Counted from the first letter of the stretch, positions 268 through 56,949 are shown. The stretch is 64,000 nt of DNA from an uncultured Acidobacteriota bacterium (GCA_963793695.1 CAWCBB010000016.1:132550-196549), one strand, 5' to 3'. Notes: a model not told the origin generated them from the sequence alone. A program made the numbers and translations.

Positions 268-1222
268 CCGGAGGCGTTGACCGTTCTCCGTTGACCGTTG
301 ACCGTTCTCCGTTCTCCGGTCTCCGCTGAAAATGGGGTGAGGCTGCGCGAGGGCTGGAGGCGCGAAGCCGTTTTCGCGGAGGCGTTCTCCGTTCTTCGTT
401 GTCCGTTCTCCGCGGCAAATGGGGTGAGGCTGCGCGAGGGCTGGAGGCGCGAAGCGCCGCGATATTGGTAGCACCCGGCGTCAGCCGGGTGAACGTGTCG
501 CCTCAGGCGGATCCGAGCGCGCAGCGGCGGACACTGCCGCCGCTGACGCGGCTCATCTTGGTGCAGCTCTCTCACACCGGCCCGCCGGAGGCGTTCTCCG
601 TTCTCCGTTCTCCGTTCGCGCAAATGGGGTGAGGCTGCGCGAGGGCTGGAGGCGCGAAGCGCCGCGATATTGGTAGCACCCGGCGTCAGCCGGGTGAACG
701 TGTCGCCTCAGGCGGATCCGAGCCGCGCAGCGGCGGCACAATCTGCCGCCGCTGACGCGGCTCATCTTGGTGCAGCTCTCTCACACCGGCCCGCCGGAGG
801 CGTTCTCCGTTCTCCGTTCTCCGTTCTCCGCGGCAAATGGGGTGAGGCTGCGCGAGGGCTGGAGGCGCGAAGCGCCGCGATATTGGTAGCACCCGGCGTC
901 AGCCGGGTGAACGTGTCGCCTCAGGCGGATCCGAGCCGCGCAGCGGCGGCACAATCTGCCGCCGCTGACGCGGCTCATCTCGGTGCAGCTCTCTCACACC
1001 GGCCCGCCGGAGGCGTTCTCCGTTCTCCGTTCTCCGTTCTCCGCGGCAAATAGGGTGAGGATGCGCGAGGGCTGGAGGCGCGAAGCGCCGCCATATTGGT
1101 AGCACCCGGCGTCAGCCGGGTGAACGTGTCGCCTCAGGCGGATCCGAGCCGCGCAGCGGCGGCACAATCTGCCGCCGCTGACGCGGCTCGTTGTTCTCGG
1201 TGCGGCTCTCTCACACCGGCCT
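268..1222. repeat. tandem array of a ~208-216 bp unit (1 truncated + 4 full copies)
   Basis: Unit starts (CCGGAGGCGTTCTCC...) are at 268, 377, 585, 794 and 1007. Units 3 and 4 are almost identical. Each unit has a short (GTTCTCC)n block, GCAAATGGGGTGAGGCTGCGCGAGGGCTGGAGGCGCGAAGC, and the strong stem GCAGCGGCGGCA-caatc-TGCCGCCGCTG. Track ORFs here (e.g. 670..1053) only read the repeat. Confidence 0.9.
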
Positions 1223-14159: not shown

Positions 14160-14275
14160 GACAAATGCAAAATGCAGAATGCAAAATGAAAAATACGAAA
14201 AGGAAACCGGCCCGGGATTCACCGGCAGCTTCCTTCTTGGACTTTACATTTTGCATTTTGCATTTTGCATTTGTC
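14160..14275. repeat. inverted-microsatellite hairpin, AT-rich ATGCAAA flavour
   Basis: GACAAATGCAAAATGCAGAATGCAAAATGAAAAATAC ... TTACATTTTGCATTTTGCATTTTGCATTTGTC. It fills the divergent deoA/queC intergenic region and has a close relative at 53904-53995. Confidence 0.9.
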
Positions 14276-14965: not shown

Positions 14966-15597
14966 TTCGCATCACCGAGATCTTCCATTCGATTCAGGGA
15001 GAGTCCACGCACGCGGGGCGCCCCTGCATCTTCATCCGCCTCACGGGCTGCAATCTCCGCTGCAGCTGGTGCGATTCCGCGTACACGTTCACCGGCGGCG
15101 AGCCGATGTCGATCGAGTCGATTCTCGAGACGATCGCGACGTGGGATTGCCGTCTCGTCGAGGTGACGGGCGGAGAGCCGCTCGCGCAGAAGGAGTCGCT
15201 CGAGTTGATCCGCCGGCTCGCCGACGCCGGCTACGAGGTCCTGATCGAGACGTCCGGATCGATCGACATCGAGCCGGTCGACCCGAGGGCGAAGATCATC
15301 CTCGACGTGAAGTGCCCCGGCTCGGGGGAGGAGCGGAAGAACTTCTGGCCCAACCTCGCGAAACTCCGCGCGCACGACGAGGTCAAATTCGTGCTCGCCG
15401 ACCGTGCCGATTACGACTACGCCCTCGGCGTGATCCGGGAGCACGGCCTCGAGGGGCGGGCGCTGCTTTTCTCCCCCGTGTGGGGATCGCTCGATCTGAA
15501 GGACCTCGCAGCCTGGATGCTCGAGGACAGGATCGAGGCGCGGCTCCAGATCCAGCTGCACAAGCTGATCTGGGGAGCGGACGCGCGCGGAGTCTAG
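14962..15597 (+). CDS. queE: 7-carboxy-7-deazaguanine synthase (radical SAM)
   Basis: ATG 14962 overlaps the queC stop (ATGA). [39 protein letters not shown] carries the QueE CxxxCxxC signature. The gene is intact. The stop TAG 15595-15597 lies in the first GTCTAGGG unit. Confidence 0.9.
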
Positions 15598-16112
15598 GGG
15601 TCTGGGAGTCTAGGGGTCTAGGAGTCTAGGGGTCTGGGAGTCTAGGGGTCTAGGAGTCTAGGGGTCTGGGAGTCGGTCTTGGAGTCGAGTCTGAGGGTCA
15701 GGGTTGGAGTCGTGAAATGACTCCGAACACGACACCCGGGCCGACGCCAGACTCCGACGTTTAGACCCAATGGCCTTAACTTAAGCGATGGTTTCGACGA
15801 CGATGTCATCCCGAGCGTAGCGAGGGATCTGGGCGGGGGCTGCGAAAGAACGCGGCGCCGGTGCAGGGCAGGAGGATCGGCATTCGCTTCGTGATCGCAG
15901 GCGAATCTCGACCCTGCCGCCGTGCTTCGGTGCCGCGTCACGCGTAACCCACCCGCCCAGATCCCTCGCTACACTCGGGATGACAGCTTCGCGGGCAACT
16001 CGCTTAAGTTAAGGCCATTGCGTTTAGACCGACGCTTAGACTCTCAGACGCTTAGACCGACTCCAAGACTCCAAGACTCCAAGACTCCTAGACCCTTAGA
16101 CCCGTTACGCGG
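15592..16112. repeat. inverted-microsatellite hairpin, 8-mer GTCTAGGG/CCTAGAC flavour, carrying a nested MITE
   Basis: Left arm (GTCTRGGR)n runs about 15592-15700. Right arm (TTAGACC/CAAGACTC)n runs 16021-16112. The 253-bp MITE 15768-16020 sits between the arms. Confidence 0.85.
15768..16020. mobile_element. non-autonomous MITE, 253 bp, copy 1
   Basis: 18-bp TIRs CAATGGCCTTAACTTAAG / CTTAAGTTAAGGCCATTG. Flanking 10-bp direct repeat CGTTTAGACC (15758-15767 and 16021-16030). It contains 33-bp inner inverted repeats GTCATCCCGAGCGTAGCGAGGGATCTGGGCGGG (15805-15837 and 15952-15984) and has no ORF. Confidence 0.8.
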
Positions 16113-20206: not shown

Positions 20207-20220
20207 GGCGGCCTAAAGGC

Positions 20221-20350
20221 GTTCTCCGTTCTCCGTTCTTCGTTCTCCGCGGCGAGGGCTCCGGCCGGACCGAACGGCTCGCGGGACCCACATCAGAATC
20301 GCCGCCCGGACGGGGTGCCGCGAAGAACGGAGAACGAAGAACGGAGAACG
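20221..20350. repeat. inverted-microsatellite hairpin, GTTCTCC flavour
   Basis: GTTCTCCGTTCTCCGTTCTTCGTTCTCC-GCGGC...core...GCCGCG-AAGAACGGAGAACGAAGAACGGAGAACG. It is preceded by GTAGGGCGGCC, which holds the M50 protease stop. Confidence 0.85.
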
Positions 20351-20430
20351 TTTCTGGAAAAAGGGGATTGTTTGGCGGTAGTTCTCCCGTTTGGTAGGCT
20401 TGCCGGCCTCGCCGGCCGCAAGGATTTCCT

Positions 20431-23159
<2,729 letters not shown>

Positions 23160-25019: not shown

Positions 25020-26447
25020 ATGTTGATCGATCTCAGTGACGTTTCCCCCATTCGCAAGCAGATCGAAGTCGAGATCCCCGCCGAGCCGTCGCGTCCGCCT
25101 TCCAGAAGGTGACGGGAGAGTTCGCCCGCCATGCGAAGGTGCCCGGCTTCCGCCCCGGCAAGACGCCGAAGGAAGTCATCCGGACCCGGTTCAAGAAGGA
25201 CATCGAGACCGAGGTGATGGACCGGCTGCTGCCGGAGTTCTTCTCGGAGGCGATCTCCGGGAAGGAATTCGAGCCCGTGGGGAACCCGGGGCTCAAGAGC
25301 GTCGACACGCTCGAGGAAGGGAAGCCCGTCCGCTTCGTGGCCGAGTTCGAAATCAAGCCCCCGATCGTCCTGCGCGAGTATCGCGGGATCGAGGTCACTC
25401 AGGAGCCGACGGAAGTGACCGAGGCGGAAGTCGACGAGATCGTCGAGAGGTACCGCGATCGCGCGAGCTCGTTCATCCCCGCCGGCGACCGCGGCGCGGA
25501 AGAGGGCGACTATCTGGTCATCGACATCACGAGCAGCGGCGAGGGGGTCGAGACCCGCACCTCGGAAGGCTACCTGATGCAGATGGGGGAGGCCGCGCCC
25601 CTTCCCGAGCTCAACGACGCGCTCCGCGGGAAGAAGATCGGCGACTCGGCCTCTTTCGAGAAAGCGTATGGAGAGGATGCTCCGAACGACCAGGTCCGGA
25701 ACAAGACGGTGCGCTACGACGTCGTGATCAAGGACCTGAAGATGCGCGAGAAGCCGCCGGTGGACGACGAGCTCGCGAAGACGGCGAACCTCGGCGAGAC
25801 CGTCGGCCGAGATGCGCGACCGGATCCGAGGCGACATCCGGAAGCACAAGGAGCACGAGGCGCAGCAGTCGAAGCGCCAGCAGGTCGGCAAGGAGCTGGT
25901 CGCCCGCCACGAGCTCGAAGTGCCGTACGCGCTCCTCTCGGAGGAGATGACGCGCTCGATGCGCAACTACGCGCGCTTTCTCGCCTCGCAGGGCGTCGAC
26001 ATCGAGAAGGCCGACCTCGACTGGGAGGAGATCGGAAAGAACCTCGAGCCGGATGCCCGCGACCGCGTCAGGCGCTCGCTGATCCTCGAGGCGATCGCTC
26101 GGAAGGAAGGGATCGAGATCTCCGAGGTCGAGGTGGACGCCGAGATCCGGAAGGCCGCGGCGGGCTCGGACCAGGAGTTCGCCGAGGTGCGGCAGCGGCT
26201 GCGCTCGGACGGCGGGTACGAAGCGCTGCGCGCGTCGATCGCGCAGGAGAAGGCGCTCGAAATGGTGGTCGAGGCGGCGGACGTCGTCGAGAAGTGCGGA
26301 GTTCTCCGTTCTCCGTCGCGGCAAGATTCAGGGCCGGCGTTCCGAAGGTCGCAGGCCGTCCTCGCTGCCGCGGCGAACGGAGAACGGCGAACGGCGAACG
26401 GCGAACGGAGAACGGAGATCGTCTCCCTCCGCAGCGGTATACGATAG
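25020..26447 (+). CDS. tig: trigger factor, 2 frame breaks (near 25086 and 25805) and a 3' read-through into a repeat
   Basis: MLIDLSDVSPIRKQIEVEIPAE, then AVASAFQKVTGEFARHAKVPGFRPGKTPKEVI (ORF 25109..), then ORF 25812..26447. After ...EAADVVEK the frame runs about 50 codons through the GTTCTCC hairpin before TAG 26445. Confidence 0.85.
26301..26418. repeat. inverted-microsatellite hairpin, GTTCTCC flavour
   Basis: GTTCTCCGTTCTCCGT-CGCGGCAA...core...GCCGCGGC-GAACGGAGAACGGCGAACGGCGAACGGCGAACGGAGAACGGAGA (2 units against about 6). Confidence 0.85.
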
Positions 26448-27090: not shown

Positions 27091-27203
27091 AGGTCATCCC
27101 TCGCCGCGCTTCCAAGGACGACCACCGGCGCGGAGGTGGCCGAGGTCCCGCATTTTGAGCTCCTTCGCTTCACGCCCGCCCCCCTCTCGCTGAGGATGAC
27201 CCA
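27091..27203. repeat. GTCATCC-type palindromic element (degenerate)
   Basis: GGTCATCCCTCGCCGCG ... CTCGCTGAGGATGACCC. A further half-site GGGCTCGGGATGACG lies at about 27250. It is related to the inner arms of the MITE. Confidence 0.6.
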
Positions 27204-27398
27204 CAGGGTCCGTCGTCGCTTCATCGGCGTCCGCGCCGTTGGTGGGCTCGGGATGACGCGTCGTTCGGGCTCGCCGCGACGGCATCTCGGCACGCCGCGC
27301 GCGCTGAAACATTCCGTCGGTCCTCAGGGCATTCGCGGGGTTCCGCCAGCGGAATGGCCCCGCGAGGGAGCCTGTTTCGATCAGCACCGGAGGCGTCC

Positions 27399-28709: not shown

Positions 28710-28781
28710 CGCCGCCCTCCTGCTCCATCCGACGCGATCCGACCGCTCCCCGCGGGGAGCTTTGGATGTTCGCAATCCCTT

Positions 28782-31188
<2,407 letters not shown>

Positions 31189-32085: not shown

Positions 32086-33625
32086 ATGAAGAACATGGAA
32101 GAGCGCATGGACAAAGACGTCGAAACGATCGAGGACGACGCGCCGGCCGCCACGGCCAGGAGCGAGCGGGACAAGCCGGAGAAGCCGGCGCGCGCGAAGA
32201 AGGAAAAGGCGGCCGCCGCCGAGAAAGCGGCGACGAAAGCCGCCGCCGACGCTCCCGAGAAGGAGCCCGAGGAGGCGGCGGAGAACGGCGGGAAGGCCGA
32301 GCTCCCGCAGCAGGCGGCGAAGGCCGCCGAGAAGGGCGCGCGCCGTTCCGGAAGGGGAGCAGCCCTCGTCGGACACGCTCGACATCCGCGGGCTCAAGGA
32401 GATGAGGCTTCCCGATCTGATGAAGATCGCGAAGGACTTCGGAGTCGAGAACGCCCCCGGGATGCGCAAACAGGATCTGATCTTCGCGATCCTGCAGGCG
32501 CAGACCGAGAAGAGCGGCTTCATCTTCTCCGAGGGAGTTCTCGAATGTCTCCCCGACGGGTTCGGGTTCCTCCGAGCGCCGGAGTACAACTACCTTCCGG
32601 GGCCGGACGACATCTACGTCTCCCCCTCGCAGATCCGCCGTTTCGATCTGCGCACCGGCGACACGGTGTCCGGCCAGGTGCGCCCTCCGAAGGAAGGGGA
32701 GCGCTACTTCGCTCTGATCAAGGTCGAAGCCGTCAACTTCGAGCATCCCGACGTCGCGCGCGAGAAGACGCTCTTCGACAATCTCACGCCTCTCTATCCG
32801 GAGGAGCGGATCAAGCTCGAGGTGCCGACCAACATGTCGTCGCGCGTCCTCGACCTGGTCTCTCCGATCGGGAAAGGGCAGCGCGCGCTGATCGTCGCCC
32901 CGCCGCGCACCGGCAAGACGATGATCCTGCAGGCGATCGCGAACTCGGTCACCACGAACCATCCCGAGATCGTGCTCATCGTCCTGCTGATCGACGAGCG
33001 GCCCGAGGAAGTCACGGACATGCAGCGGTCGGTCAAGGGGGAGGTCATCAGCTCGACCTTCGACGAGCCGGCCTCGCGCCACGTGCAGGTCGCCGAGATG
33101 GTGATCGAGAAAGCCAAGCGGCTCGTCGAGCACAAGCGCGACGTCGTGATCCTCCTCGACTCGATCACCCGGCTCGCCCGCGCCTACAACACGGTCGTTC
33201 CTCCCTCGGGGAAGGTCCTCTCCGGCGGCGTCGACTCGAACGCGCTCCAGCGGCCGAAACGCTTTTTCGGCGCGGCGCGGAACATCGAGGAAGGAGGCTC
33301 GCTCACCATCGTCGCGACCGCCCTCATCGACACCGGCTCCCGCATGGACGACGTCATCTTCGAGGAGTTCAAGGGGACGGGCAACATGGAAGTCCATCTC
33401 GACCGCAAGCTCGTCGAGAAGCGCGTCTTCCCGGCCATCGACATCAACAAGTCGGGGACGCGGAAAGAGGAGCTCCTCCTCGACAAGAGCGAGCTCAATC
33501 GGATCTGGGTCCTCCGGAAGGTGTTCAGCCCCCTCTCGACCGTCGAGTCGATGGAGCTCCTCATCGAGAAGCTCGAGAAGACGAAGACGAACTCCGAGTT
33601 CCTCAACGCCATGTCGTCGATGTAA
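32086..33625 (+). CDS. rho: transcription termination factor Rho with K/E/A-rich N-terminal extension, one frame break near 32338
   Basis: ORF 32402..33625 covers the RNA-binding domain (GFGFLR), Walker A PPRTGKT and the remaining Rho core. Frame +2 already reads [21 protein letters not shown] from 32342. Upstream, ORF 32086.. gives about 85 aa of low-complexity K/E/A sequence. Confidence 0.9.
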
Positions 33626-33684
33626 TCGGGGTCCTCCTCATGAGCGCCGCAGGCGCGGCATCGTATGGCCCCGGGCGCCAGCCG

Positions 33685-33936
33685 CAATGGCGTTAACTTA
33701 AGCAATGGTTCGGGCGACGATGTCATCCCGAGCGTAGCGAGGGATCTGGGCGGGTGTGGTGCGCGTGACGCCGCACCGAAGCAGGGCACAGGCTCGAAAT
33801 TCGCTGGCGACCACGAAGCGAATGCCGATCCTGCTGCCCTGCTCGGGCGCCGCGTTCTTTCGCAGCCCCCGCCCAGATCCCTCGCTACGCTCGGGATGAC
33901 AGCTCCGGGGCATCTCGCCTTAAGTTAACGCCATTG
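33685..33936. mobile_element. non-autonomous MITE, 252 bp, copy 2
   Basis: TIRs CAATGGCGTTAACTTAAG / CTTAAGTTAACGCCATTG. Flanking direct repeat GGGCGCCAGCC (33673-33683 and 33937-33947). Same inner 33-bp inverted repeats as copy 1 (33722-33754 and 33868-33900), but the core between them is the reverse complement of copy 1. Confidence 0.8.
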
Positions 33937-34151
33937 GGGCGCCAGCCCGGGGTTCGTCGTTTCAGGAGAATCCAGAGCCGCGTGCGGCGACGATCTTGCA
34001 CGGTCGCGACCGGTATCCCGCGCGCACCCGGGCGGGCGCGCGCGCCTGAAACGACACGGCGCGGCGCTTCGTACAAGAACTCATGCGGAGGAGTCAGTCG
34101 TTTACGGCCGGAGTAAGCTCCGGCGCCCGCCTGTTCTGACTCGCGATCATC

Positions 34152-46777: not shown

Positions 46778-47269
46778 GATTGGAGATTGCAGATTGCGGA
46801 TTGCAGATTGGGCGAGCGCAGCAGCCGGATTCTATGTCATCCCTCGCTGTGCTTCTAATGAACCGGCCGCCCGCGGGTGGAGTGGAATGAAGGGATGTTA
46901 GTCGCCCCTCGGGGCTCGACCCTGTTTCTCTGGGGGGTTCACCCCCGTATTCTCTGCGCCGCTTCGCGGCGTCGCTCCCGCGAAGCGGCGGGAGACATAG
47001 CGGGGGCGAGCGAAGCGAGCCCCGTAGGCGGCGGATACGAATCCCGAGCCCCGAAGGGGCGACAGACCCAAATCTCATCGCCCCTTCGGGGCTCGACCCT
47101 GTTTCTCCGCCACGGTTCCCGGGGGTTCGCTTCGCTCACCCCCGGCTATTCTCTGGCGCCGCTTCGCGGCGTCGCATTCCTTAGAAGGGTGATCGAGGGA
47201 TTCGAGGGTGAGGCGACGCGCACTGCACGGTCAGCGCACCGCACCTGAGCAATCTGCAATCTGCAATGC
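46778..47269. repeat. composite repeat region bounded by GATTGCA/TGCAATC heptamer arms
   Basis: Left arm GGATTGGAGATTGCAGATTGCGGATTGCAGATTGGG and right arm GAGCAATCTGCAATCTGCAATGC. Inside are a GTCATCCCTCGC-type inverted pair (46846 / about 47190), two direct copies of TCGCCCCTCGGGGCTCGACCCTGTTTCTC...GCCGCTTCGCGGCGTCGC (46902 and 47078), and several hairpins. Confidence 0.8.
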
Positions 47270-51302: not shown

Positions 51303-51312
51303 CGAAGAAGCC

Positions 51313-51564
<252 letters not shown>

Positions 51565-51570
51565 GATCCC

Positions 51571-54920: not shown

Positions 54921-56768
54921 GTGTCCGATCAGCCGTCCGCCGCCGTCCTAGAGCGGCCCGAAGTCCCGCCCCGCGAGCCGAAGGTCAACGATCTGACGAT
55001 CCACGTCGCGACCGTCAACGGATCGGGATCGCAGTCCTCGAACAGCGTGCTGATGCGCTCCATCTTTCAGATGGGGATCCCCGTCAGCGGGAAGAACATG
55101 TTTCCCTCGAATATCGCGGGGCTCCCGACGTGGTTCACGATCCGGGCGAACCGCGACGGCTGGATCGCGCGGAAGCGCGAGGTCGACATCCTGGTCGCCA
55201 TGAACCCGGCGACGGCTCGCGACGACGTCGAGGCGCTCGAGGCCGGGATCGATCTGCGTCTACGACGCGCCGCTCAAGTGCGAGACGTTCCGCGCGGACC
55301 TCGGCTTCTACCCCGTTCCGTTCGCGAAGCTCGCCGCGGAAGTCACCGACGACTCGCGCCTCAAGAAGCTCCTCGCGAACATGATCTACGTCGGGATCGT
55401 CGCGGACCTGATCGGGATCGAGCGGGAAGAGATCGTCGCCGCGGTCGGGAAGCAGTTCAAGGGAAAGCAGAAAGCGATCGACCTCAACGTCAGGGCGGTC
55501 GACAAGGGGCTCGAGTACGCGAAGGCGAACTTCGCAGCGCCAGTCGCGCTGGCGCGTCGAGCGGATGGACGCCACGCGCGGCAAGATCATCATCGACGGG
55601 AACGCCGCCGCCGCGATCGGCGCCATGTTCGGCGGCGTCACCGTCGTGACGTGGTATCCGATCACCCCGTCGTCTTCGCTCTGCGAGAGCCTGATCGACT
55701 ACATGAAGCGGTTCCGCGGTCCGCGACGGCAAGGCGACGTTCGCCATCGTGCAGGCCGAGGACGAGCTCGCCGCCGTCGGGATGGTCCTCGGCGCCGGAT
55801 GGGCGGGAGCGCGCTCCATGACGGCGACCTCCGGCCCCGGCATCTCGCTGATGGCGGAGTTCGCGGGGCTCGGCTACTTCGCCGAGATCCCGGGCGTGAT
55901 CTGGGACATCCAGCGGGTGGGCCCCTCGACCGGGCTTCCCACGCGCACCGCCCAGGGAGACGTCCTCTCGGTCGCTCTGCTCTCGCACGGCGACACGCAG
56001 CACATCGCGCTGATCCCGGGCTCGGTCGAGGAGTGCTTCGAGTTCGCGATCGACGCTCTCGATCTCGCCGAGGCTGTTCCAGACGCCCATCTTCGTCCTC
56101 TCGGATCTCGACCTCGGCATGAACAACTGGATGTCCGATCCGTTCCGCTATCCGGACCGACCGATCCGCCGCGGCAAGGTGCTGACGAAGGAGCGAGCTC
56201 GAGGAGCTCGGCGGGAAGTGGGGGCGCTACGACGACGTCGACGGCGACGGGATTCCGTGGCGCACGCTTCCGGGGACCGAACATCCGATGGCGTCGTACT
56301 TCACGCGCGGCTCGGGGCACGACGCGCAGGCGCGCTACTCCGAGCGCCCTGAAGACTACAAGGCGACGGTCGACCGCCTCCGGAAGAAGTACGAGACCGC
56401 GCGCGACCAGGTGCCGCCGCCGGTCGTCGACAGGCGCGACGGGGCGAGGATCGCGTTCATCGCCTACGGCACGACGGATTTCTCGGTCGAGGAGTCGCGC
56501 CACCAGCTCCGGAGCGAGCGGGGGATCGAGACGAGCTACATGCGGCTGCGCGCGCTGCCGCTGCACGCGACGAGCTCGCGCGTTCGTCGCGGCGCACGAG
56601 CGCGTCTACGTCGTCGAGCAGAATCGCGACGGCCAGATGGCCGACCTGATCCGGCTCGAAGTCGGCGAGGAACAGGGGCGGATCCGGAAGATCCTCCACT
56701 ACGACGGTCTGCCCTGTCACGCGCGGTACGTGACGGATGCGGTGATCGAGATGGAAGGTGATCGTTGA
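54921..56768 (+). CDS. korA: 2-oxoacid:ferredoxin oxidoreductase alpha subunit (fused gamma-alpha type), multiple frame breaks
   Basis: GTG start after GGGAGGAG. N-terminal gamma-like VATVNGSGSQSSN, then GNAAAAIGAMFGG...TWYPITPSS and SGPGISLM. Fragments lie in ORFs 54921.., 55381.., 55565.., 55749.. and 56288... The stop TGA 56766-56768 lies inside a GTTGATC unit. Confidence 0.8.
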
Positions 56769-56937
56769 TCGTTGATCGTTGGCAGGATGTCATCCCGAGC
56801 GTAGCGAGGGATCTGGCCGGGTGGGCGGTGCGAAACTGCGATTCGTGCACCGCACCCCCACCCGGATTCCTCGCTACGCTCGGAATGACACGTCCGACGG
56901 GCGCCTTCGATCAACGGTCAACGGTCAACGATCAACG
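56759..56937. repeat. inverted-microsatellite hairpin (GTTGATC flavour) carrying a nested GTCATCC palindrome, between korA and korB
   Basis: Arms TGATCGTTGATCGTTGATCGTTGG and CGATCAACGGTCAACGGTCAACGATCAACG. The nested 101-bp element at 56789-56889 reads GTCATCCCGAGCGTAGCGAGGGATCTGG...CCGGATTCCTCGCTACGCTCGGAATGAC. Confidence 0.85.
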
Positions 56938-56949
56938 TGGAGGTAAAAG

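Follow-up and report, generated by a model that had tools for sequence, protein, structure and literature searches.

Opposite orientations of a REPIN-like module nested within two copies of a mobile hairpin element in a Thermoanaerobaculia genome

The sequence examined is a 64-kb window (the term denotes the whole 64,000-nt stretch of DNA analysed; GCA_963793695.1, CAWCBB010000016.1:132550-196549) of a Thermoanaerobaculia (Acidobacteriota) genome, in which two copies of a small repeat element lie in intergenic DNA. Copy 1 spans 15768-16020 (253 bp), at a locus whose neighbours in related genomes encode thymidine phosphorylase, QueC, QueE and a glyoxalase-family epimerase, and copy 2 spans 33685-33936 (252 bp), at a locus whose neighbours in relatives encode Lon, EngB, Rho, PBP1A and MlaEFD; those relatives that bear a name are Thermoanaerobaculia metagenome-assembled genomes (MAGs), and PBP1A and QueE of the window have 100% matches on a 604-kb contig. 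Each copy consists, in order, of an 18-bp outer repeat, a 19-nt left linker, a 33-bp arm, a core, a second 33-bp arm, an 18-nt right linker and the other outer repeat; we refer to outer repeats and linkers as the shell, and to arm, core and arm as the module. The features are as follows.

15758-15767, no strand: copy 1, left target-site duplication CGTTTAGACC; the identical 10-mer adjoins both element ends
15768-15785, plus strand: copy 1, left outer terminal inverted repeat CAATGGCCTTAACTTAAG; a perfect 18-bp inverted repeat with 16003-16020 that fits IS4-family end signatures (PMC2266710, Table 1)
15786-15804, plus strand: copy 1, left linker CGATGGTTTCGACGACGAT; a marker of shell polarity, 15/19 against the copy 2 left linker and 10/20 against the reverse complement of the copy 2 right linker
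15805-15837, plus strand: copy 1, left inner arm, 33 bp; extends 1 nt outward as T...A and contains GCGTAGC flanked by GA/GA and TCCC/GGGA
15838-15951, plus strand: copy 1, core, a 114-bp quasi-palindromic spacer taken as the reference orientation; 99/114 against the reverse complement of 33755-33867, and alignable with the standalone modules of L136 and L027
15952-15984, minus strand: copy 1, right inner arm; one mismatch to the left arm
15985-16002, plus strand: copy 1, right linker AGCTTCGCGGGCAACTCG; 15/19 against the copy 2 right linker
16003-16020, minus strand: copy 1, right outer terminal inverted repeat; pairs with 15768-15785
16021-16030, no strand: copy 1, right target-site duplication CGTTTAGACC; the same 10-mer as on the left
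33673-33683, no strand: copy 2, left target-site duplication GGGCGCCAGCC; one extra G follows at 33684, and the 11-mer is present once at the empty site in L148, L136 and L137
33685-33702, plus strand: copy 2, left outer terminal inverted repeat CAATGGCGTTAACTTAAG; a perfect inverted repeat with 33919-33936, its C/G difference from copy 1 being compensated at the other end
33703-33721, plus strand: copy 2, left linker CAATGGTTCGGGCGACGAT, placed by linker alignment
33722-33754, plus strand: copy 2, left inner arm, a match to the 33-mer
33755-33867, minus strand: copy 2, core, 113 bp; with the shell as reference, opposite in orientation to the copy 1 core
33868-33900, minus strand: copy 2, right inner arm; 33/33 with the left arm
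33901-33918, plus strand: copy 2, right linker AGCTCCGGGGCATCTCGC, placed by linker alignment
33919-33936, minus strand: copy 2, right outer terminal inverted repeat; pairs with 33685-33702
33937-33947, no strand: copy 2, right target-site duplication GGGCGCCAGCC; the same 11-mer as on the left
56788-56890, no strand: a short module (about 100 bp) of the same arm family, standing alone with a different short centre and no outer shell, between inverted GATCGTT / CAACGGT tandem arrays

The central 114/113 bp of the two copies are oppositely oriented relative to the shell. Core 1 (15838-15951) matches the reverse complement of core 2 (33755-33867) at 99/114 positions and core 2 in the forward direction at 79/118; since the core is self-complementary to nearly the same extent (about 78/118), the forward match reflects this self-complementarity and the core is a quasi-palindrome, the polarity of which is set by about 40 asymmetric columns. 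The linkers, by contrast with the core, align in the same direction (15/19 on the left and 15/19 on the right, as against 10/20 and 11/19 in the opposite pairing), with a summed alignment score of 20 when co-oriented and 0 when opposed; scores of at least 20 arose in 0 of 20,000 shuffles, and scores of at least 0 in 932 of 20,000 (4.7%). Identity over the whole element is 208/258 in the forward direction and 219/255 in reverse; flipping nothing but the copy 2 core raises it to 228/254. The co-orientation of the linkers together with this gain shows that the flip relative to the shell is genuine, and rules out the insertion of whole elements in opposite directions; the core identities of 99/114 in reverse and 79/118 forward rule out an effect of self-complementarity. 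The inversion of the core, its independence of self-complementarity and its bounding by 33-bp inverted repeats (33/33 and 32/33 between arms), as proposed by a first-pass annotation of the window, are thus borne out by realignment, and the outcome that would have overturned that proposal, linkers matching better in reverse, is excluded. The identity of the arms leaves inversion of the core alone indistinguishable from inversion of the whole 180-bp arm-core-arm module. The comparison of core orientation covers two composite copies, both within the window. The arm 33-mer, GTCATCCCGAGCGTAGCGAGGGATCTGGGCGGG, occurs at four sites in the two copies and, in related form, at a fifth site at 56789 (32/33 shared); shuffled versions of the window gave 0 matches to it.

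The shell has the properties of a MITE (miniature inverted-repeat transposable element), as the earlier annotation had also recognized: terminal inverted repeats, target duplications, an empty site in relatives (for copy 2), and a small, non-coding body. The outer repeat, CAATGGC(C/G)TTAACTTAAG (family form CAATGGCSTTAACTTAAG), is 18 bp long and perfect in both copies, and the target duplications of 10 bp (copy 1) and 11 bp (copy 2) are likewise perfect. A pattern search of genome contigs recovered the same shell family in other Thermoanaerobaculia MAGs, among them L015 and L001, in which the same outer repeats carry 9- and 11-bp duplications. A search of metagenome contigs with an 18-mer pattern gave one genuine occurrence (L027) among the 120 matches listed; viral contigs gave zero matches to the arm, and their matches to the outer repeat were all at chance level; a plasmid collection gave no match.

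Copy 2 lies just downstream of rho, within the loop of the rho terminator hairpin (CCCCGGG...CCCGGGG, with a T-rich tail behind it), and in L148, L136 and L137 this hairpin is uninterrupted and the 11-mer present once. L148 (Logan run SRR30681639) is a strain of the same species, with PBP1A identical at 816/820 amino acids (99.5%) and 2426/2463 nt and the 3' end of rho identical at 199/201 nt, and is the only same-species contig that spans the copy 2 locus; L136 and L137 represent related species, with PBP1A 87-88% identical to that of the window. The empty site in L148 makes copy 2 an insertion polymorphism within the species, and the composite has therefore moved recently. Insertion into the terminator loop leaves the terminator stem around the element. 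The rho-PBP1A spacer of relatives carries another repeat, with units containing GATGTCGCGCCTACGGCGCTC (L148 290-430, L136 6060-6330, L138 1-190 and L149 1-30), that is absent from the window, so this intergenic region turns over fast, even within the species. At the copy 1 locus, the contigs of the two closest relatives (L139 and L140) end in tandem arrays, and the corresponding spacer of L141 lacks the MITE but is unalignable.

The ends of the shell match the signature of the IS4 subgroup (-AATR--------WTW----) at 7/7 positions and that of the IS231 subgroup (CAT-------AA--TAA---) at 7/8, with both subgroups as defined in PMC2266710 (Table 1), where direct repeats are 10-13 bp and 10-12 bp, respectively. 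The duplications of the shell (9-11 bp) fit those of the IS4 family, which at 10-13 bp are about one helical turn. This end signature and duplication length suggest that the shell may be mobilized in trans by an IS4-type DDE transposase encoded elsewhere; the open reading frame (ORF) scan of the 64-kb window returned no transposase gene, either DDE or Y1. The shell also resembles IS4-family-derived MITEs and cassettes (for example the IS231-derived MIC231) in the CAAT... start of its terminal repeat, in being small, non-coding and multicopy, and in its empty sites in relatives; it differs from them in carrying a second palindromic repeat nested inside. IS231-subgroup elements are found almost exclusively in the Bacillus cereus group, whereas the host here is an acidobacterium. 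Two of the four target duplications of the shell family, GGGCGCCAGCC at copy 2 and GGCTGGCAGCC flanking the L001 element, are GC-rich near-palindromes inside hairpins. They resemble the GGG(N)5CCC target preference that IS231A reportedly shows, said to have been described by Hallet and colleagues in 1994.

Coding capacity and known RNA structure were considered for the element and rejected. Compared with 5.8 billion proteins, an 87-aa ORF that overlaps copy 2 (33665-33928) gave no homologue, and no Rfam family covers the element at gathering thresholds; at relaxed thresholds only generic long-hairpin plant miRNA models appeared, far below their cutoffs.

The module nested within this shell is a repeat in its own right. 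It measures about 182 bp and comprises two inverted arms of 33/34 bp, (T)GTCATCCCGAGCGTAGCGAGGGATCTGGGCGGG, around a quasi-palindromic spacer of 113/114 bp. A standalone module with a homologous core and neither outer repeats nor linkers is present at L136:13410-13591, and a second lies at the end of the metagenome contig L027, where the right side has no outer repeat and the left flank is truncated by the end of the contig; the four long-core modules can be aligned over their whole length with all cores in a single orientation. Shorter forms of about 100 bp, in which the same arms enclose a different, short centre, are found at 56788-56890 of the window, L001:3348-3447 and L031:1701-1799. Standalone modules have no target duplication, and their palindrome extends by one T...A pair. 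In shells of other Thermoanaerobaculia (L001, L015 and L013), different GTCATCC-type modules occupy the same central place. The window holds three paired modules in 64 kb, in addition to degenerate ends near 27200, where two right-end-like motifs (CTCGCTGAGGATGAC and GGGCTCGGGATGAC) lie between clpP and clpX (27186-27257) with no recognizable left partners.

The module ends carry the motif GTCATCCCGAGCG...CGAGGGATC, which is found in several phyla: GTCATCCCGAGCG, followed by a variable segment (often GCGNAGC) and CGAGGGAYC, is present, alone or as ~100-bp inverted pairs, in MAGs from Acidobacteriota, Bacteroidota, and Alpha-, Beta- and Gammaproteobacteria (loci include L004, L006, L007, L008, L010, L012 and L014, as well as 56788-56890 of the window). 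The motif corresponds to no Rfam family, was absent from the literature searched by sequence and from the supplements of PMC3733652, and may represent an undescribed class of repetitive extragenic palindromic (REP)-like repeat spread across several phyla. Among the closest described systems in form are the head-to-head REP dimers, or REPINs (Bertels & Rainey 2011, PMC3116915; PMC3733652), which are likewise short conserved inverted units around a conserved spacer of 20-100+ bp that fold as one long hairpin, lack target duplications, occur as single or dimer units and are intergenic. The module shares with them an inverted pair of units in one hairpin and many intergenic copies without target duplication; it departs from them in its 5' tag, which is GTCA rather than GTAG or CGTC, in that its unit is not the GTAG- or CGTC-tagged imperfect palindrome of REPs, and in that the arm's own palindrome is weak in nearest-neighbour energy. 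Nor was a RAYT or TIRYT gene seen next to module repeats: the window contains no RAYT (Y1 transposase) gene, and the DNA between neighbouring modules in L001 and L010 contains ordinary genes only, with no transposase and no Y1 gene. Nesting is a further likeness, as REP dimers inside longer repeated palindromes are described by Di Nocera et al. (2013, PMC3733652) in Anabaena variabilis and Halothiobacillus neapolitanus; unlike those outer palindromes, the one here is a genuine transposon flanked by target duplications. The portions of PMC3116915 and PMC3733652 drawn on here make no mention of a spacer flip in REP dimers or REPINs.

Shell and core have diverged to the same degree between the two copies (64/74 and 99/114 identical, respectively; Fisher P = 1.0; both about 13%), which is consistent with their having diverged together as one unit. 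The arms are identical at 65/66 positions within the genome (P = 0.006 against the core), and across all four long-core modules, which come from three genomes, the left arm does not vary in its outer ~28 nt. The two cores are 87% identical to each other and 82-85% identical to those of modules in other genomes; being as far apart as cores from different genomes, and 13% diverged, the two copies represent old sublineages of a still-mobile family, for which one rare flip on either lineage is enough.

Over its full length, each element gives a single long hairpin on folding (-105 and -110 kcal/mol; z = -14 and -15.6). The two strands of the module, top and bottom, differ in folding energy by about 2-3 kcal/mol on a total of about 140, and these near-equal folds imply that a flip changes little structurally; strand asymmetry of the hairpin (G.T versus C.A pairs) was considered as a signal and discarded, as differences of 2-3 kcal/mol are not informative. 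Covariation in the hairpin amounts to one compensatory pair, from four sequences only, a sample with no statistical power. The GCGTAGC of each arm is a d(GCGNAGC)-type sequence, which might form a GNA-loop DNA mini-hairpin, here flanked by tandem G.A; the nearest-neighbour model gives no support to such a structure, as the minimum-energy fold of the arm (ATCCC-GA-GC-GTA-GC-GA-GGGAT) reaches only -3.5 kcal/mol, with z of about 0, no better than shuffles.

The first-pass annotation had likened the core to invertase-driven phase switches such as fimS and hin, and this analogy was not supported. Sixty-one ORFs covering the window were compared with Pfam, and the sole recombinase among them, at 1475-2479 on the minus strand and 13 kb from copy 1, was typed by an NCBIfam equivalog model as XerD (TIGR02225; score 366.5 bits, cutoff 329.6) and is presumably the resolvase of chromosome dimers, a housekeeping enzyme; the gene is flanked by heptamer arrays. 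No serine invertase, serine recombinase or Y1 transposase was found among the 61 ORFs, and no recombinase in the syntenic neighbourhoods of both loci in relatives. A scan with a sigma-70-type consensus found no sigma-70-like promoter in either element on either strand. Relatives conserve the PBP1A leader together with the sequence immediately upstream of the gene, both downstream of the insertion point, and L148 keeps the rho-PBP1A order and this conserved upstream sequence without copy 2, so PBP1A is independent of the element. The flipped unit, moreover, occurs alone elsewhere. The core shares with invertons (fimS with FimB/FimE, the hin segment and PhaseFinder-type promoters) a short segment bounded by inverted repeats (33/33 and 32/33) and seen in both orientations. 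Unlike them, it has no nearby invertase (within the window) and contains no promoter, coding end or other orientation-dependent element detectable by the sigma-70 scan, Rfam or folding; its two orientations are found in paralogous copies diverged by 13% rather than at one locus, and the segment is a quasi-palindromic, multicopy mobile repeat. We found no support for the core as a programmed on/off switch, as flipping the quasi-palindrome barely alters the hairpin and moves no detectable promoter.

The surroundings of the two copies are themselves repetitive. Intergenic DNA of the window is rich in tandem arrays of 7-8-bp units arranged as inverted pairs around a short centre, including (CATTCAA)n/(TGAATGT)n, (AAATGCA)n/(TTTGCAT)n, (GGAGTCTA)n/(GACTCCAA)n and (CGTTCTC)n/(GAGAACG)n, at sites that include 2477-2624, 14163-14272, 15589-16093, 20220-20350, 26371-26415, 51311-51565 and 56757-56942. 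Relatives share such arrays (the tail of L140, and L137 near 1738). MITE copy 1 lies inside the right arm of one array pair, and another pair has the short module at 56788 as its centre. The stretch 377-1221 contains four tandem copies of a 213-bp unit, two of them identical; one copy is scored as Acido-Lenti-1 RNA (1076-1122, minus strand), and 47119-47171 gives another hit to this RNA. Among the essential genes of the window, SecA (20398-23159) has its domains in three ORFs, Lon (28710-31187) has its lid domain in a separate frame and Rho (32086-33625) has its N-terminal extension in a different frame from its core, a pattern that suggests assembly indel errors and less likely real frameshifts.

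The explanation we favour, at a probability of roughly 0.6, is that a composite IS4-type MITE carries a REPIN-like module that inverted once or rarely, through recombination or template switching between its perfect 33-34-bp arms, and that the inversion became fixed in one sublineage. Both loci would then be copies of a hairpin-forming, non-coding composite of about 253 bp with the module at the centre of a MITE shell. The spacer, or equivalently the whole module, would have been flipped by a rare exchange between the arms with no dedicated enzyme, either by intramolecular homologous recombination or by replication template switching across the hairpin or cruciform, and the outcome would be a fixed difference between two old composite sublineages. 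Passive recombination between the 33-bp repeats had been the second option of the earlier annotation, and we retain it as the probable mechanism. A related composite, the arms of which share only about 12 + 8 nt, has the same orientation in 3/3 copies (L001, L009 and L015), and this unflipped short-arm form, albeit a small sample, supports exchange between arms as the route. A length of 33-34 bp is just above the minimum for RecA-dependent exchange, closely spaced inverted repeats also invert by RecA-independent template switching in Escherichia coli, and hairpin-associated small inversions occur in plastid non-coding DNA. The likeness to these plastid and E. coli inversions is that a segment between perfect repeats in a hairpin stem flips without an enzyme and is left as a fixed lineage difference; they differ in that the substrate here is a mobile repeat and the flip is seen between paralogous copies. 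Several observations weigh against this reading. The equal divergence of shell and core is suggestive of, and not proof of, joint divergence. The conservation of the arms, far above that of core and shell, suggests recognition by a protein, which might in principle also catalyse inversion. Acidobacterial promoters may differ from the sigma-70 type for which we scanned, and an invertase or HUH enzyme could be encoded beyond the 64-kb window. Finally, only two composite copies stand behind the flip.

An alternative interpretation is that the module entered, or was replaced in, the two shells separately, either through site-specific insertion of its own at the midpoint of the shell palindrome or through ectopic gene conversion with a different module copy as template. 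As the arms are mutually reverse-complementary, a donor module could pair either way, and the core could thus be installed in either orientation with no inversion at all. This is compatible with the occurrence of the module alone as a separate repeat, with the homogenization of arms across module types in the genome (the short module at 56789 shares 32/33), with the nesting of REP dimers in longer palindromes of other bacteria (PMC3733652), and with the different central modules of the L001, L015 and L013 shells, which point to repeated exchange or acquisition. We nevertheless consider it unlikely because the two copies share both junctions to the base (GACGAT|GTCATCC and GGATGAC|AGCT), such that the same two bonds would have been needed twice, because no empty shell occurs among the sequences examined, and because shell and core share the same 13% divergence expected of one unit. 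Mis-assembly, mis-polishing or the collapse of a mixed population at the palindrome, which the split frames of SecA, Lon and the Rho N terminus might bring to mind as signs of assembly indel errors, is scarcely credible as a source of the flip: indel errors do not make inversions, the flip is base-exact at both arm boundaries, the flipped core differs at 15 scattered positions and so was not copied from the other core, and standalone modules in independent assemblies share the internal sequence.

Enzymatic inversion can be posed in two forms. A recombinase encoded elsewhere, or a hairpin-nicking HUH/Y1 enzyme acting in a parvovirus-like flip/flop, might invert the core in a programmed or recurrent manner, in which case orientation would differ among members of the population, and might thereby modulate neighbouring genes. 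The perfect 33-bp inverted repeats around a segment seen both ways would suit such an enzyme, as would arms far more constrained than the core, with ~28 nt invariant in four modules and a terminal motif present in other phyla, which suggest protein recognition; the GCGTAGC of each arm offers a d(GCGNAGC)-type mini-hairpin as a lead. Acidobacteria encode Y1 transposases associated with terminal inverted repeats (PMC3733652). The balance of the evidence nonetheless makes programmed inversion distinctly improbable: the 64-kb window encodes XerD and no invertase, serine recombinase or Y1 transposase, the sigma-70 scan found no promoter-like site, the two orientations belong to different copies diverged by 13%, the quasi-palindromic core folds equally well on both strands, the arm hairpin is at -3.5 kcal/mol like its shuffles, and copy 2 sits in the rho terminator hairpin, upstream of the PBP1A leader, which is conserved, and a strain of the same species does without this copy. 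In the narrower form, the conserved arms, with their GTCA tag and GCGNAGC mini-hairpin, would be substrates of a strand-specific enzyme, for example of the TIRYT-type HUH/Y1 kind, and the core would flip recurrently at single loci by flip/flop-like hairpin transfer or site-specific exchange; we give this very little credence. The terminal palindrome of the parvovirus adeno-associated virus (AAV) offers the analogy, in that the inner part of an imperfect palindrome there takes two configurations relative to the outer stem; AAV flip/flop arises from hairpin transfer during rolling-hairpin replication with the HUH nickase Rep at a genome end, and the comparison is no more than an analogy.

These copies represent layered selfish DNA, in which a recently mobile IS4-type MITE shell carries a REPIN-like palindrome. 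We caution against taking orientation differences between paralogous copies as phase variation; perfect inverted repeats will cause nested MITEs of this sort to be flagged by PhaseFinder-type detectors. If, on the other hand, the strand-specific enzyme reading were true, the module would be a dispersed, multicopy invertible repeat with no adjacent invertase, the polarity of which is visible only through the asymmetric MITE shell. That shell provides a polarity reference that palindromic repeats normally lack, and makes the rate of flipping or exchange of palindromic modules countable in a complete genome or read set; if flipping proves frequent, it would bear both on the processing of such hairpin repeats and on whether mobile palindromes are taken for switches, falsely, in searches for invertible segments.

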